Shown: positions 6,265 through 62,544 of the stretch, in pieces
Numbering within the stretch: position 1 is the stretch's first letter
How the letters are laid out: every line of letters starts with the position of its first letter
The notes under the pieces: generated by a model
The model's input: only the letters and a program-made list of their open reading frames with translations
The model's database searches: none
Told to the model about the DNA's origin: nothing
Program-made: the position numbers and the translations under genes
From: Candidatus Peribacteraceae bacterium
GTDB taxonomy: Bacteria; Patescibacteriota; Gracilibacteria; Peribacterales; Peribacteraceae
Assembly: GCA_040081825.1 (NCBI GenBank)
Contig: JBEBFT010000004.1
Span: forward strand, 11,523 to 75,522
Reading direction: 5' to 3'
DNA length: 64,000 nt

Positions 6265-6969
6265 TTACCAGCGGAAGATCGTGAAGTCAGTATCACGATC
6301 GTACTGATCCAGAGACTCCTGACGTTTAAGGAAGCCTACGACTCGGTATGTGACTGGTGTGAAGAGTACTTCGATCAGCACTTTGAAGATGTAGTTTGAG
6401 AGGATGAGACTGACTGCGATCTCCCACGGGAATACTCCTAGTACGCAGGCGATGAGGACAAATGTTGTCGTATCGACTGCCTGTCCGAAGAGTGTGGAGC
6501 CGATCGTGCGCATCCAGAGCATGCGACCCTGCATCGCTATCTTCATTTTCGCGAGGACAAAAGAGTTGCTGAACGCTCCGAAGAGAAACGCAACAAGACT
6601 CGCGACCATGATACTGCCGCTTGCGACACCCCCCAGAATGGAACTGAACGCTGCGTCGCCTGCATATCCCTGCCAAGCGGATTCACCGGGCATAGCGCTC
6701 ACAAGTGCCAAAGACACACTCATGAGTGCGAGTGAGAAAAACCCGAGCCAGATCACACGCCGTGCGCGGGCATAGCCATATACTTCAGTCAGTACGTCTC
6801 CGAAGATGTAGCTGATCGGAAAAAGCAGTGTGCCCGCATCGAAACTAAGACGCAGACCCAGCAAACCTACACCCCAATCGATGATTTTCGCGGACGACGC
6901 AACATTGCTCGTGAGGATCACAGCAACGAAGAGTGCGACGATGGCATCGAAATAGCGATATGTTTTCAT
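6265..6969 (-). CDS. yhhQ: queuosine-precursor transporter (YhhQ/DUF165 family)
   Basis: 234-aa polytopic membrane protein with FPISYIFGDVLTEVYGY and a C-terminal VDTTTFVLIA block typical of YhhQ. Confidence 0.85.
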   Translation of the reverse strand: MKTYRYFDAIVALFVAVILTSNVASSAKIIDWGVGLLGLRLSFDAGTLLFPISYIFGDVLTEVYGYARARRVIWLGFFSLALMSVSLALVSAMPGESAWQGYAGDAAFSSILGGVASGSIMVASLVAFLFGAFSNSFVLAKMKIAMQGRMLWMRTIGSTLFGQAVDTTTFVLIACVLGVFPWEIAVSLILSNYIFKVLIEVLFTPVTYRVVGFLKRQESLDQYDRDTDFTIFRW

Positions 6970-7427: not shown

Positions 7428-7503
7428 CGGGACGTAGCTCAGTTGGTAGAGCGCCTGGTTTGGGACCAGGAGGCCGCGAGTTCGAGTCCCGCCGTCCCGA
7501 CCA
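7428..7503 (+). tRNA. tRNA-Pro (anticodon UGG), CCA encoded
   Basis: Cloverleaf read by eye: acceptor CGGGACG/CGTCCCG, D arm GCTC-AGTTGGTA-GAGC, anticodon arm CCTGG-TTTGGGA-CCAGG, T loop TTCGAGT, then ACCA. Confidence 0.95.
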
Positions 7504-16035: not shown

Positions 16036-16054
16036 GTGCAGGCATCGCCTGTAA

Positions 16055-16106
16055 GTGACTAGTGGTTAGTGGCTAGTGGTTAGCCGAATACTAGCCACTA
16101 ACCACT
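16055..16106. repeat. heptamer tandem repeat (GTGACTA GTGGTTA GTGGCTA GTGGTTA) folding into a perfect 17-bp hairpin
   Basis: Arms 16061-16077 and 16090-16106 are exact reverse complements. The element lies between the convergent clpP and the DoxX-like gene. Confidence 0.85.
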
Positions 16107-17048: not shown

Positions 17049-17216
17049 AAGTGAAAGGGGGAAGAAGTAGACGACACGCAGAGTATGGCACGAGAAAATG
17101 TGTGCTTTATCACAGTCTGGTGGCTCAGCAAGTTGAAAGAATGGAGTTAAAAGGATGCAGACGTAACAGAGGTTTCAGTTGTGGCAGAAGTGCGGGAGGT
17201 GCACAAGATAATCACT

Positions 17217-17252
17217 TCTGTACCCTCTGTACCTTCTGTACCCTCTGTACCA
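17217..17252 (+). repeat. 4 x 9-bp tandem repeat TCTGTACC(C/T/A) ending 4 nt before the tgt ATG
   Basis: tctgtaccc tctgtacct tctgtaccc tctgtacca, read directly. Confidence 0.9.
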
Positions 17253-17256
17253 TCTC

Positions 17257-18411
17257 ATGTTCACTCTGCATACCTCCACAGCCACCGGTCGATCAGCAAC
17301 GCTCCACACCGCACACGGCGATCTCACGACTCCATTCTTCATGCCTTGTGCCACCGCGGGAGCACTCAAGGGGCTCACGTTCGAGGATCACAAAGCACTC
17401 GGTGGCGAGATCCTTCTCATGAACACGTATCACTTGCACCTCACTCCGGGAGAAGAGATCGTCAGGCAAGCAGGAGGGCTGCACACGTTCGCAGGATGGG
17501 ACAGACCCATCCTCACTGACTCCGGCGGATTCCAGGTATTCTCACTCGAGTCTCTCAGAAAGATCTCGGAAGAAGGAGTGACGTTCAAGGACCACAGAAG
17601 TGGCGCCGAACGTTTCCTCGGACCCATCGAAGCCATGCGCATCCAACACGCACTCGGTGCCGACATCATTATGTGTTTTGACGAATGTCCGCCTTCGACT
17701 GCTCCACGCGCTGAACAAATCTCAGCAGTGGACCGCACACTACGTTGGGCGAAGGTGTGTAAGGAGGAGCATGAACGACTGAAGAACGAGACGAACAAAA
17801 GGAATAATAGGAACAATACGAATATCTCGCTGTACCCAAAAGATTCCTTGGATTCCTCTCTTTCCTCTGGTTCCTTTCATTCCTACCCGCTTCTGTTCGG
17901 CATCGTCCAAGGCGGGCTCGAAAAAGATCTGCGTAAAAAGTGTGCTGAGGAACTGATCGCAATTGGTTTCGATGGCTACGCAGTCGGTGGACTGGCAGTC
18001 GGTGAGAGTGAAGAGGAAATGTTCGATGTGCTGGATACTGTCTGTCCGCTGCTCCCAGAAGATAAGCCGAGGTACCTAATGGGTGTCGGCGAGCTCACCC
18101 AAATCAAAATTGCTGTCGCAAAAGGAATAGACATGATGGACTGTGTTGCACCAACCCGCGAAGCACGCCACGGAAACATCTGGATGTCGGATGGCACGAA
18201 ACTCAAAATCCGACGAGCGGAGTACGCGACAGACTTTTCTCCGATTGATCCTGACTCCCCTGCTCCGAGCAGCCGAAAGCATTCCAAAGCGTACCTGCAT
18301 CATCTTCTCAAAATCGGCGAACGGTTCGGTGAGACGCTCGCGTGTCTACAGAATCTGGGGGTGACGCTTGAGACGGTGCGAACGCTTCGAACAAAGATTG
18401 AGGAAAGTTGA
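17257..18411 (+). CDS. tgt: tRNA-guanine transglycosylase homolog (divergent: zinc ligands absent, internal insertion)
   Basis: 384 aa with LTDSGGFQVFSL, MCFDEC, FGIVQGG, YAVGGLAVGE, YLMGVG, GIDMMDCVAPTR and AYLHHL, all Tgt hallmarks. See the findings for the deviations. Confidence 0.9.
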   Translation: MFTLHTSTATGRSATLHTAHGDLTTPFFMPCATAGALKGLTFEDHKALGGEILLMNTYHLHLTPGEEIVRQAGGLHTFAGWDRPILTDSGGFQVFSLESLRKISEEGVTFKDHRSGAERFLGPIEAMRIQHALGADIIMCFDECPPSTAPRAEQISAVDRTLRWAKVCKEEHERLKNETNKRNNRNNTNISLYPKDSLDSSLSSGSFHSYPLLFGIVQGGLEKDLRKKCAEELIAIGFDGYAVGGLAVGESEEEMFDVLDTVCPLLPEDKPRYLMGVGELTQIKIAVAKGIDMMDCVAPTREARHGNIWMSDGTKLKIRRAEYATDFSPIDPDSPAPSSRKHSKAYLHHLLKIGERFGETLACLQNLGVTLETVRTLRTKIEES

Positions 18412-20167: not shown

Positions 20168-20244
20168 TGGTGGGCGCCAAGGGATTCGAACCCCTGACCC
20201 TCTCGGTGTAAGCGAGATGCTCTAACCAGCTGAGCTAGGCGCCC
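20168..20244 (-). tRNA. tRNA-Val (anticodon UAC), CCA encoded
   Basis: The reverse complement is GGGCGCCTAGCTCAGCTGGTTAGAGCATCTCGCTTACACCGAGAGGGTCAGGGGTTCGAATCCCTTGGCGCCCACCA. The anticodon loop is CTTACAC. Confidence 0.93.
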
Positions 20245-20249
20245 TTCGG

Positions 20250-20284
20250 GTATGTCGTATGTTGTACGTAGTATGTAGTATATG
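20250..20284 (+). repeat. 5 x 7-bp tandem repeat GTATGTN running into the ATG of the next gene
   Basis: gtatgtc gtatgtt gtacgta gtatgta gtatATG. A TAGTAT -10-like hexamer at 20269-20274 sits 7 nt before the ATG. Confidence 0.85.
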
Positions 20285-36463: not shown

Positions 36464-36539
36464 CGGGATGTAGCTTAGTTGGTAAAGCGCCAGGCTGGGG
36501 GTCTGGAGACCCAGGGTTCGAGTCCCTGCATCCCGACCA
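36464..36539 (+). tRNA. tRNA-Pro (anticodon GGG), CCA encoded
   Basis: CGGGATG acceptor, anticodon arm CCAGG-CTGGGGG-TCTGG, T arm CCAGG-GTTCGAGT-CCCTG, then CATCCCG-A-CCA. Confidence 0.92.
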
Positions 36540-46435: not shown

Positions 46436-46466
46436 GTGAAGAGTGATTAGTGGCTAGTGGTTAGTG
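46436..46466. repeat. heptamer tandem repeat GTGAAGA GTGATTA GTGGCTA GTGGTTA GTG, 6 nt upstream of the dnaA ATG
   Basis: Read directly. It is followed by the hairpin GCAGCC-ttcca-GGCTGC (46466-46482). Confidence 0.8.
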
Positions 46467-48153: not shown

Positions 48154-48230
48154 GGGCAATTAGCTCAGCTGGCTAGAGCGCCACATTGACATTGTGGAGG
48201 TCACTGGTTCAAGTCCAGTATTGCCCACCA
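48154..48230 (+). tRNA. tRNA-Val (anticodon GAC), CCA encoded
   Basis: GGGCAATTAGCTCAGCTGGCTAGAGCGCCACATTGACATTGTGGAGGTCACTGGTTCAAGTCCAGTATTGCCCACCA. The anticodon loop is TTGACAT. Confidence 0.93.
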
Positions 48231-62468: not shown

Positions 62469-62544
62469 GGATCGGTAGCTCAGTTGGTAGAGCAGGAGAC
62501 TCTTAATCTCTTGGTCGTGGGTTCAAGTCCCACCCGATCCACCA
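62469..62544 (+). tRNA. tRNA-Lys (anticodon CUU), CCA encoded
   Basis: GGATCGGTAGCTCAGTTGGTAGAGCAGGAGACTCTTAATCTCTTGGTCGTGGGTTCAAGTCCCACCCGATCCACCA. The anticodon loop is CTCTTAA. Confidence 0.93.

Follow-up and report, generated by a model that had tools for sequence, protein, structure and literature searches.

A Peribacteraceae tRNA guanosine(34) transglycosylase with intact catalytic residues and no canonical zinc ligands

The gene tgt of a Peribacteraceae bacterium (17257..18411, + strand, of the 64,000-nucleotide stretch of DNA analysed here, the window) encodes a tRNA guanosine(34) transglycosylase of 384 aa in which the catalytic and substrate-pocket residues are kept and all four ligands of the usual structural zinc are replaced. 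We consider it probable that this is the organism's one working bacterial-type Tgt, metal-free, served by preQ1 salvage and carrying a probably neutral insert; we show fold similarity, sequence features and phyletic patterns, and infer activity, the absence of metal, its replacement by hydrogen bonding and the neutrality of the insert. A wider proposal, to which we give slightly less than an even chance, is that the structural zinc of Tgt is dispensable and has been repeatedly discarded (in Peribacteraceae, at least 5 other CPR lineages and Hyphomicrobiales), with a Ser...Gln clamp as maybe one solution, and that, separately, the Q218 loop is a family-wide landing or expansion site for translated hairpin repeat DNA.

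Identity, fold and pathway of the tgt product

Profile searches place the tgt product well within the bacterial enzymes. It scores 415.1 bits against the TIGR00430 equivalog (cut-off 306.75) and 418.8 against Pfam TGT (PF01702; threshold 26.3, E 2.3e-125). PF01702 has a single match in the source genome, a 1.08-Mb draft of 14 contigs that is 97.4% complete, so tgt is its sole TGT-family gene. The protein is 42-43% identical to Z. mobilis TGT and aligns in phmmer to chain 1ozm of that enzyme (E 5.7e-98), and its AF2 model (pLDDT 95.4 overall) matches that enzyme in Foldseek with a TM of 0.89/0.92 and an rmsd of 1.5 Å over 383 columns. Model and structural match together describe a (beta/alpha)8 barrel with an attached C-terminal subdomain.

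The sequence-only reading had called this a Tgt homolog that keeps its catalytic and pocket residues, a description borne out both by the equivalog score and by conservation. The blocks TDSGGFQ, FDEC, IVQGG, GLAVGE, LMGVG and MMDCV are all present. Alignment to 1ozm locates the catalytic Asp D88 (codon 17518..17520, +), D142-E143-C144 of the bacterial-type preQ1 pocket (17680..17688, +) and D295 (codon 18139..18141, +). We take D88 to be the equivalent of Z. mobilis D102, D142/C144 of D156/C158, and D295 of D280, presumably the nucleophile in the solved covalent intermediate; the preQ1-pocket residues of Z. mobilis we take to be Cys158, Val233, Gln203, Gly229/230, Leu231 and Met260. The 120 closest homologs, which come from Peribacteria/Peregrinibacteria (CPR) and are 59-80% identical to Tgt, keep D88, S89, D142, C144, Q218, G244, G245, L246, A247, V248, E250, Y273, M275 and D295 in 120/120 cases. 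D88, D142 and D295 are also invariant in a 149-row alignment (A1) made of every second one of homologs P0002-P0120 and the 88 of 105 representatives that passed a length and motif filter.

Fold, catalytic Asp residues and preQ1-type pocket are thus common to this protein and the Tgt of Z. mobilis and E. coli (TIGR00430, PF01702), and at two positions that, on our understanding, tell bacterial from eukaryotic enzymes apart it has the bacterial Cys and Val (C144, V248). It differs from those enzymes in having S/A/S/Q where they have a Cys3His zinc site, in a 33-aa disordered insert before the strand carrying Q218, and in a His at the position of the Z. mobilis interface Trp, which we take to be W326.

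Comparison with the TGT, ArcTGT, DpdA and QTRT2 families, suggested together with the sequence-only reading, assigns the protein by score to bacterial Tgt (TIGR00430), with DpdA and TgtA below their cut-offs. For DpdA, the DNA-guanine transglycosylase, profile NF041059 gives 22.9 bits against a cut-off of 200 and PDB 7ui4 an E of 0.00099; for archaeal TgtA, TIGR00432 gives 93.7 bits against 350. The C1/C2/PUA domains named for archaeal TgtA in one paper (PMC5699537) have no room here, since the protein has only 384 aa. We also rejected a QTRT2-like non-catalytic subunit: the catalytic Asp residues are retained, the genome has no TGT paralog, and QTRT2 chains match residues 173-304 only (E ~1e-10). 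The same paper (PMC5699537) describes the zinc-site residues of phage 9g DpdA as not conserved, 'two out of the four'; that enzyme is DNA-modifying and belongs to a distant subfamily, whereas Tgt here has lost 4/4 ligands.

Gene content points to a preQ1-salvage route, because YhhQ, QueA and four GUN tRNAs are present and QueC/D/F/G/H are missing. The YhhQ precursor transporter noticed earlier at about 10 kb from tgt is an ORF ~10.3 kb upstream (6265..6969, - strand) that encodes a 234-aa member of the YhhQ/Vut_1 (queuosine-precursor) transporter family (PF02592, E 7.4e-48 at G000:C13:17862-18362). A genome search for queA, queG/H and queCDEF, also suggested at that stage, returned queA; QueC, QueF, QueH, QueG and QueD were not found in the 97.4%-complete genome. 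The substrate tRNAs are Asp(GUC), Asn(GUU), His(GUG) and Tyr(GUA). As this small-genome member of Peribacteraceae (CPR) apparently cannot make the base, the route would run from YhhQ through Tgt to QueA: Tgt would put imported preQ1 in place of G34 in tRNA-Asp, -Asn, -His and -Tyr, and QueA would turn the Tgt product into epoxyqueuosine. These findings support a minimal preQ1-salvage route in a CPR bacterium. The end product of the pathway is uncertain, because queA is missing in 38/93 tgt-bearing genomes of the order and no epoxyqueuosine reductase (QueG, QueH) was found in this genome.

Across the order, tgt is retained in 93/101 genomes of ~1 Mb. All queA-positive (55/55) and all yhhQ-positive genomes (57/57) are tgt-positive, counts in which related genomes are non-independent samples, and queA and yhhQ are both missing from all 8 genomes without tgt. 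This pattern weighs against a degenerate or repurposed Tgt, that is, a dead protein, a QTRT2-like tRNA-binding scaffold or an enzyme for another substrate (DpdA-like DNA or another base). Such a protein could have lost a site described in print as absolutely conserved, and would fit both the tgt-bearing relatives without queA and the missing QueG and QueH. Its catalytic and preQ1-pocket residues would not be expected to be invariant in 120/120 homologs, however, nor do the DpdA and TgtA scores favour it, and as the sole TGT-family gene in the genome it has no catalytic partner. The sequence-only reading had raised the question of an inactive or repurposed enzyme: with a single tgt copy, invariant functional residues, and queA and yhhQ found only in genomes with tgt, we judge this unlikely and keep to a working bacterial-type Tgt.

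The former zinc site and the distribution of ligand loss

The former zinc site (18256..18351, +) consists of S334, A336 and S339 in a loop and Q365 in a helix. In the phmmer alignment to 1ozm, S334/A336/S339 fall under the C-x-C-x-x-C of the chain and Q365 under its His, consistent with what we take to be the Z. mobilis zinc ligands, C318/C320/C323/H349. This confirms the replacement of all four ligands at identical spacing that had been proposed from an alignment by eye. Only 80/384 positions are invariant among the 120 homologs, and S334 (ligand 1) and Q365 (ligand 4) belong to them. We attach practically no weight to a sequencing, assembly or binning artefact in the substitutions or the insert, to which a 14-contig draft might lend itself: the same substitutions recur in 120/120 independent homologs from many sources and at the loci of 30/30 related genomes, and the frame is open throughout tgt.

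Against an active metal-free Tgt, mutating the zinc ligands of the E. coli enzyme reportedly abolished its activity (work of Chong et al. in 1995), so a compensating change must exist in a ligand-less Tgt. The C-terminal subdomain, normally a loop clamped to a helix by the Cys3His zinc, would fold metal-free here. Most likely, the place of the metal cluster is taken by hydrogen bonds and packing among the side chains of Ser334 and Gln365, which occupy ligand positions 1 and 4, and of the small residues at 336 and 339, a geometry that we infer. The AF2 model has a pLDDT of 98-99 over residues 320-384, the former zinc subdomain, a confidence that may derive from the input alignment, which includes CCCH sequences.

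The C-terminal 85 residues contain a single Cys, C363, and four His, H308, H342, H348 and H349, with no alternative Cys3His set among them. C363 and H342 are clade-typical residues near the old site, present in 117/120 and 109/120 homologs, where Z. mobilis has Thr and Trp. Taken with H348 and H349 on the adjoining helix, they would suit a structural metal still bound through C363, H342, H348/H349 and nearby Asp/Ser, the site having moved and not been lost. We regard this as improbable. The whole subdomain has a single Cys, which lies two residues before Q365 and, judging by helix geometry, should point away from the former site. Neither H342 nor C363 is invariant, and H349 is, with Y346, a conserved dimer-interface residue of canonical TGT that lies in the modelled interface. 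Other lineages without the zinc ligands, moreover, carry quite different residues. A metal-free subdomain held by Ser334 and Gln365 is the reading that we prefer.

This subdomain would also keep its role in the homodimer interface, with F78, Y346, H349 and E355 conserved. The predicted homodimer uses the same surfaces as bacterial Tgt, the loop-helix motif and the C-terminal subdomain (residues 34-41, 59-80 and 324-360). It scores 0.84 against 0.00 for the best of 3 controls, a mark reached by 20/30 proteins solved as pairs and 1/23 solved as single chains; because TGT dimers have already been solved, the pass may reflect likeness or memory. At least 95% of the contacts are shared among the three runs, with a partner pLDDT of 88.

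Published work does regard the zinc site as a family hallmark, as the sequence-only reading held: the Cys3His site of Tgt has been described as 'absolutely conserved', across all three domains of life, and at least one published phylogeny dropped sequences without the ligands (PMC3074131). No bacterial Tgt without zinc ligands is described in the freely readable text searched, although alignments in supplements may already show the substitutions. No paper in this literature was found to bring 'Peregrinibacteria' and 'queuosine' together, and the words 'zinc' and 'cysteine' are absent from the text of a Bartonella queuosine paper (PMC11570991).

Relatives surveyed for the same substitutions do have them, but as a trait fixed family-wide (120/120 homologs) and therefore not special to this gene. 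Ligand loss also occurs in 17/80 Tgt orthologs from other Patescibacteria, a sample of 80 of the ~150 matches listed, without in-match stops and spanning the whole score range. On a FastTree tree of 82 rows (the window's protein, 73 automatically parsed phylum loci and 8 Peribacteraceae, with 7 later-parsed loci left out), there are at least 8 zinc-site state changes in Patescibacteria, 5 of them forced by starred branches; within the phylum, ligand loss recurs in at least 5-8 further events. Elsewhere, ligands are lost in the Tgt of Devosia, Phycisphaerales and one Bacteroidia MAG. The full ligand set is missing in 37/37 Hyphomicrobiales Tgt sampled, including 8/8 from Rhizobiaceae, with Rhizobium, Mesorhizobium, Bradyrhizobium, Brucella and Devosia among the genera concerned; Rhodobacterales Tgt have CCCH in 25/25. 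As in Peribacteraceae, the first ligand position of Hyphomicrobiales Tgt is usually Ser. Unlike the protein studied here, most of them retain the second Cys, have Asn, Ile, Ala or Val in place of Gln at position 4 and lack the insert, and their loss, in another phylum, is independent.

We therefore treat the Cys3His site as a usual and not a defining feature of bacterial Tgt, given its absence from those 37/37 Hyphomicrobiales and 17/80 other Patescibacteria orthologs. In Peribacteraceae the zinc site was probably lost once, in the ancestor of the family, as one of many independent losses. The earlier judgement that a Zn-less Tgt is unusual stands when set against the 'absolute conservation' of the literature; in sequence space it does not, because the loss is family-wide and recurs in other lineages.

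Many Hyphomicrobiales besides S. meliloti make preQ1 de novo. For S. meliloti, brought in here through its family, Rhizobiaceae, one study names the de novo preQ1 genes queC and queF and reports that a tgt mutant behaves like queC/queF mutants and that preQ1 does not rescue it, so that queuosine-dependent phenotypes genetically require tgt (PMC3568095). A search with the Shinella protein gave Shinella-like clusters only among the 120 rows listed, with neither the S. meliloti nor the Bartonella Tgt. Other steps of queuosine and folate synthesis exist, as is probable for Tgt here, in forms without their usual zinc requirement, namely QueD2 (PMC9894224) and FolE2 (GTP cyclohydrolase IB). Those are separate paralogs that are induced under zinc limitation and use other metals, whereas here a single ortholog has lost a structural site. 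Unlike the FolE2/QueD2 setting, this genome has no general zinc sparing. Zinc economy as the cause of the site loss was accordingly rejected, as ribosomal L31, L36 and S14 all keep CxxC-type motifs; L33 was not found in the genome with PF00471.

The zinc subdomain has been treated as invariant, yet whole lineages, some of them cultured and genetically tractable, have a Tgt without the ligands, and the ligand-less Tgt in the window is nothing unusual for its lineage. In Shigella the enzyme is a drug target, and it serves as a model for how proteins recognise RNA and for the design of dimer interfaces; the ligand-less proteins offer natural templates for the role of its zinc, be it in folding, in dimer stability or in nothing essential. 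They also serve as a warning that the Cys3His motif is unsuitable as an annotation or quality filter, and because of them models of queuosine loss under metal starvation would no longer count Tgt among the obligate zinc enzymes.

The insert in the Q218 loop and the upstream leader

Residues 179-211 (17791..17889, +) form an in-frame insert, Asn/Arg-rich and then Ser-rich, marked by a gap in the PDB alignment, by TRF repeats and by inverted-repeat arms. The 1ozm alignment splits around it into Tgt residues 6-178 and 212-383, in agreement with the low-complexity insert of ~33 aa proposed earlier, and the count of 46 residues between RWAK and LFGIVQGG proved exact. In the AF2 model its pLDDT is 65-70, a long helix (151-192) runs into it, and it lies outside the modelled dimer interface. 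The insert would be a disordered extension of the loop joining that helix to the Q218 strand and, judging by barrel topology, would sit on the opposite face of the TIM barrel from the active site.

Its DNA is made of 9-nt-period repeats, detected by TRF as AGGAATAAT x2.8 at 17800-17824 and ATTCCTCTC x3.7 at 17852-17884, and its halves are imperfectly reverse-complementary, with arms of 23-31 nt that are 71-78% complementary. The imperfect inverted repeat described in the sequence-only reading is strong in relatives but weak in this genome, where the RNA hairpin has a z of -1.35, 15/200 dinucleotide shuffles fold equally well, and a second dinucleotide-shuffle estimate gives a z of -1.58. Among 30 related genomes, the insert-site DNA folds beyond dinucleotide shuffles (z < -2) in 18/30, a figure that supersedes the 22/30 obtained with mononucleotide shuffles, and the median z is -2.86. 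By raw-MFE rank in 4-kb loci, the insert is among the top 5 of ~270 windows in 8/30 genomes.

The reading frame is open across the insert site in 30/30 related genomes, and the length of the site ranges from 31 to 72 residues among the 120 homologs, with the canonical 37 or fewer in 53/120. In relatives, the long forms usually consist of one half rich in Lys/Arg/Gln and another rich in Ser/Pro/Asp. In three of them (L014, L025 and P0087) the site is occupied by an unrelated palindromic element that is GC-rich, which fits repeated insertion at a permissive site. The insert thus appears to be translated, tolerated and probably neutral, and may have arisen when hairpin-forming repeat DNA of short period was inserted or expanded; such DNA would have accumulated at this site repeatedly within the family.

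The paired composition of the long forms, the continuation of the AF2 helix into the insert and the folding excess in 18/30 genomes could also be read as signs of function, with the basic first half (in the extended helix 151-192) acting as a tRNA-binding arm or the mRNA hairpin regulating translation or stability of tgt. We think this rather unlikely, as the 53/120 homologs with the canonical span have no insert, neither sequence nor length is conserved, the hairpin is weak in this genome by both estimates, and the GC-rich elements that occupy the site in three relatives are unrelated. A probably neutral insert remains our preferred account.

The intergenic regions of the genome are filled with heptamer-array inverted repeats, of which the Q218 loop inserts may be an in-frame counterpart in coding sequence. 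An ungapped inverted-repeat scan of the genome returned 55 strong hairpins, where a triplet-shuffled control gave 1, and the tgt insert falls below the threshold of the scan. A genome-wide class of in-frame hairpin inserts is not supported, with 3/55 strong hairpins in ORFs of at least 200 aa. Rickettsia palindromic elements are in-frame palindromic repeats within genes and, like the tgt insert, place translated and tolerated hairpin-forming repeat DNA in a surface loop of a conserved enzyme. The tgt insert differs from them in having no single conserved element, its arms being 9-nt tandem repeats that differ between genomes, and in the low share of strong inverted repeats (the same 3/55) found in ORFs of at least 200 aa.

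The sequence-only reading had also linked the insert to a nonamer array just upstream of the gene through CTGTACCC, which occurs in the insert at 17830-17837. We reject this tie because the 8-mer has the frequency expected by chance in the genome (32 observed against ~33 expected), and the 'SVP' repeats in the inserts of relatives use other codons. The upstream array itself, TCTGTACCC x4.3 at 17217-17255, ends 1 nt before the ATG of tgt, and a search with the pattern gave 3 matches against 0 in 100 shuffles. It forms one arm of a 5' leader hairpin (17165..17262, +) that has no Rfam family; at gathering scores Rfam reports only 5 tRNAs in the window, with sub-threshold miRNA/snoRNA chance matches near tgt and yhhQ. 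The leader RNA folds with -34.7 kcal/mol and a z of -3.08, and 0/200 shuffles equal it.

Identity of the enzyme and its former zinc site

The tgt open reading frame (window 17257-18411, + strand) is clean over 384 codons and encodes a bona fide bacterial Tgt, in line with the Tgt homolog named in the sequence-only reading. Its product matches the Pfam TGT family with an E-value of 2.3e-125 and scores 415.1 bits against TIGR00430, the NCBIfam equivalog for bacterial Tgt (cut-off 306.75). Scores for archaeal TgtA (93.7 bits; cut-off 350) and DpdA (22.9 bits; cut-off 200) are far too low for either identity. It is the only TGT-family gene in its genome (1.08 Mb, 14 contigs, 97.4% complete). The nearest solved structures are Z. 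mobilis TGT entries (E ~1e-97), and an AlphaFold2 model built from a 149-row alignment (mean pLDDT 95.4, pTM 0.92) superposes on Z. mobilis TGT with a TM-score of 0.89-0.92 and an rmsd of 1.5 Å. A homodimer model scored 0.84, the highest of three controls 0.00; since TGT dimers have already been solved, this shows no more than likeness. Of proteins with solved structures, 20 of 30 pairs and 1 of 23 single chains attain the homodimer mark. The runs share at least 95% of contacts (partner pLDDT 88), and the interface (residues 34-41, 59-80 and 324-360) is the canonical surface, former zinc subdomain included.

All four zinc ligands proved to be replaced at identical spacing, as claimed. HMMER alignment to the Z. 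mobilis structure 1ozm placed S334, A336 and S339 on the C-x-C-x-x-C of the zinc loop and Q365 on the zinc-binding His, with no gap close by. We also looked for Cys/His ligands elsewhere in the C-terminal region; C363 is the sole Cys of this subdomain, so the Cys3His set has not been relocated.

We then compared the 120 best database homologs (59-80% identity), which, where named, belong to Candidatus Peribacteria, Peribacteraceae or Peregrinibacteria. Ser occupies the first ligand position and Gln the fourth in 120/120; the second holds Ala, Ser, Thr or Val, apart from two Cys and one Pro, and the third Ser, Gly or Ala. Every catalytic or pocket residue checked is likewise conserved in 120/120 (Z. 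mobilis equivalents D102, S103, D156, C158, Q203, G229, G230, L231, A232, V233, E235, Y258, M260 and D280), upholding the view that the active centre is kept. This shared pattern excludes sequencing error as the source of the substitutions. Invariant positions across these homologs number just 80 of 384, and S334 and Q365 are two of them. Judged from these alignments, tgt is under purifying selection, the two replaced ligand positions included, and the invariance of both suggests that S334 and Q365 may now tie the loop to the helix directly. We predict that this Tgt is probably an active, metal-free enzyme.

Zinc-ligand loss across Tgt

In the literature, the zinc site of Tgt is called invariant ('absolute conservation', PMC3074131), Tgt is counted among zinc metalloenzymes (PMC9894224), and absent zinc residues are remarked for phage DpdA only (PMC5699537). 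The literature searched yielded no paper on a bacterial Tgt without zinc ligands. The earlier description of a zinc-less Tgt as unusual therefore holds against the literature but fails in sequence space, where the homologs above are joined by 37/37 Hyphomicrobiales and 17/80 other Patescibacteria proteins. Among the 150 nearest representatives at 50% identity, 102 have the full Cys3His set (CCCH); at least two ligands are missing, with diverse replacements, from about 30 full-length ones, whose named clusters are Devosia, Phycisphaerales and a Bacteroidia MAG. The sample of 80 other Patescibacteria comprised 62 CCCH proteins, one CACH and the 17 without ligands, which are spread over seven family codes. 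Counting zinc-site state changes on a FastTree tree of 82 Tgt rows required at least eight, five of them forced by well-supported branches, and recovered Peribacteraceae as one ligand-less clade with full support. Five of seven same-class genomes outside this family are CCCH, and the loss is therefore specific to Peribacteraceae.

Scanning named alphaproteobacterial genomes (tgt loci L117-L196) revealed that the full set is missing from every Hyphomicrobiales Tgt sampled, across 15 named families and typically with S-C-A-N at the ligand positions. Ligand-incomplete proteins include those of Rhizobiaceae (8/8), Nitrobacteraceae (5/5), Brucella, Mesorhizobium, Methylobacterium and others; Rhodobacterales (25/25) and Rhodospirillales (4/4) keep CCCH. 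According to PMC3568095, a tgt mutant of S. meliloti (Rhizobiaceae) resembles queC and queF mutants, and preQ1 gives no rescue. If S. meliloti Tgt resembles those of its Rhizobiaceae relatives, a ligand-less Tgt would be functional in vivo. A Tgt of this probably metal-free kind is ordinary within its lineage yet runs against a textbook generalisation, and loss throughout Hyphomicrobiales, an order of well-studied bacteria, conflicts with the 'absolute conservation' in print.

A zinc-sparing proteome was rejected as the cause, since ribosomal proteins L31, L36 and S14 of the same genome retain Cys motifs of the zinc-ribbon type (G000 C10:118416-118604, C9:38270-38380 and C9:51873-52019); PF00471 found no L33 there. 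We have no better cause to offer than drift to a metal-free fold of equal stability.

A permissive loop within tgt

The proposed in-frame insert of about 33 residues was recovered, at 33 residues, as a break in the 1ozm alignment between residues 178 and 212, with 46 residues separating RWAK from LFGIVQGG. In the model, the insert prolongs a long helix (151-192) and continues as low-confidence coil (pLDDT 65-70) to strand 212-217. This places it in a helix-to-strand loop, predicted from barrel topology to lie on the face opposite the active site, and outside the modelled dimer interface.

Among the 120 best homologs the span measures 31-72 residues and is canonical (≤37) in 53. Long inserts usually have two halves, the first rich in Lys/Arg/Gln/Asn and the second in Ser/Pro/Asp/Leu; at the DNA level the two correspond to a purine-rich arm and a complementary pyrimidine-rich one. 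The frame is open across the site in 30/30 family genomes read, and in 18 of the 30 the site's DNA gives a more stable fold than dinucleotide-preserving shuffles do (z < -2; median z -2.86). An unrelated, GC-rich palindromic element occupies this loop in frame in three relatives (L014, L025 and P0087). From these observations we conclude that the site is a permissive loop where insertion or expansion of hairpin-forming repeat DNA has recurred many times, and where this DNA is translated. The window's insert is an eroded example: the imperfect inverted repeat noticed earlier exists as arms of 9-nt-period repeats, only 71-78% complementary, but folds weakly (z -1.35). That the insert serves as a tRNA-binding arm or an mRNA structure is an unsupported possibility; it is probably a neutral, hypervariable loop.

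L014 and L025 are the tgt loops of genomes G062 and G013, and the GC-rich element translations include ..CHPERS.. or ..VILSG..; the window's own insert is AT-rich. At L017 (genome G040), a strong hairpin immediately precedes the tgt start, roughly 90 nt ahead of the gene, with arms of AAGCAAACG-like and CGTTTGCTT-like 9-nt-period repeats in the architecture of the in-gene inserts.

Queuosine salvage and the tgt leader

The YhhQ/Vut_1 transporter gene noted near tgt is present (window 6265-6969, - strand). Checking the genome (97.4% complete) for queuosine genes gave a partial set: queA is present, and QueC, QueD, QueF, QueG and QueH were not found. All four tRNAs with GUN anticodons occur in it. 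On the simplest reading, preQ1 would be imported, inserted by Tgt and converted by QueA to epoxyqueuosine, which may be the end product because queA occurs without a detected QueG or QueH. The final nucleoside is uncertain, since no known reductase was found and 38 tgt-bearing relatives lack queA. Across 101 genomes of the order, all of one family, tgt occurs in 93, queA in 55 and yhhQ in 57; every genome with queA or yhhQ has tgt and none of the eight tgt-negative genomes has either, a pattern rather than a test among related, non-independent genomes. That 38 of the 93 tgt-bearing genomes lack queA and 36 lack YhhQ suggests differing salvage variants inside one family.

The tgt leader forms a hairpin (window 17165-17262; -34.7 kcal/mol, z -3.08, 0/200 shuffles as good) with no Rfam match and no visible Shine-Dalgarno-like purine run. 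Its 3' arm is an array of 4.3 copies of TCTGTACCC that stops 1 nt before the ATG and was not seen in the leaders of seven relatives examined. Each repeat contains CUGUA, which we take to resemble U33-G34-U35-A36 of the tRNA-Tyr anticodon loop, possibly by chance. Rfam found no riboswitch in the window, its only matches at gathering score being five tRNA genes (7428-7500; 20171-20244, - strand; 36464-36536; 48154-48227; 62469-62541).

Short-period repeats are unusually abundant in this genome (646 TRF arrays, 231 of period 7). Strong inverted repeats number 55, versus 1 in a shuffled control, and lie mostly outside long ORFs; many intergenic ones have ~32-nt arms of tandem heptamers. Repeats of these kinds occur in the window (16054-16105, 20250-20281 and 46442-46466) and throughout the genome (for example G000 C8:14016-14090, C3:53886-53988 and C1:4374-4464). 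The heptamer varies by site, as in (TAGTGGT)n..(ACCACTA)n, (AATAATG)n..(CATTATT)n and (GTACGTA)n, such that the architecture is conserved within the genome and the sequence is not.
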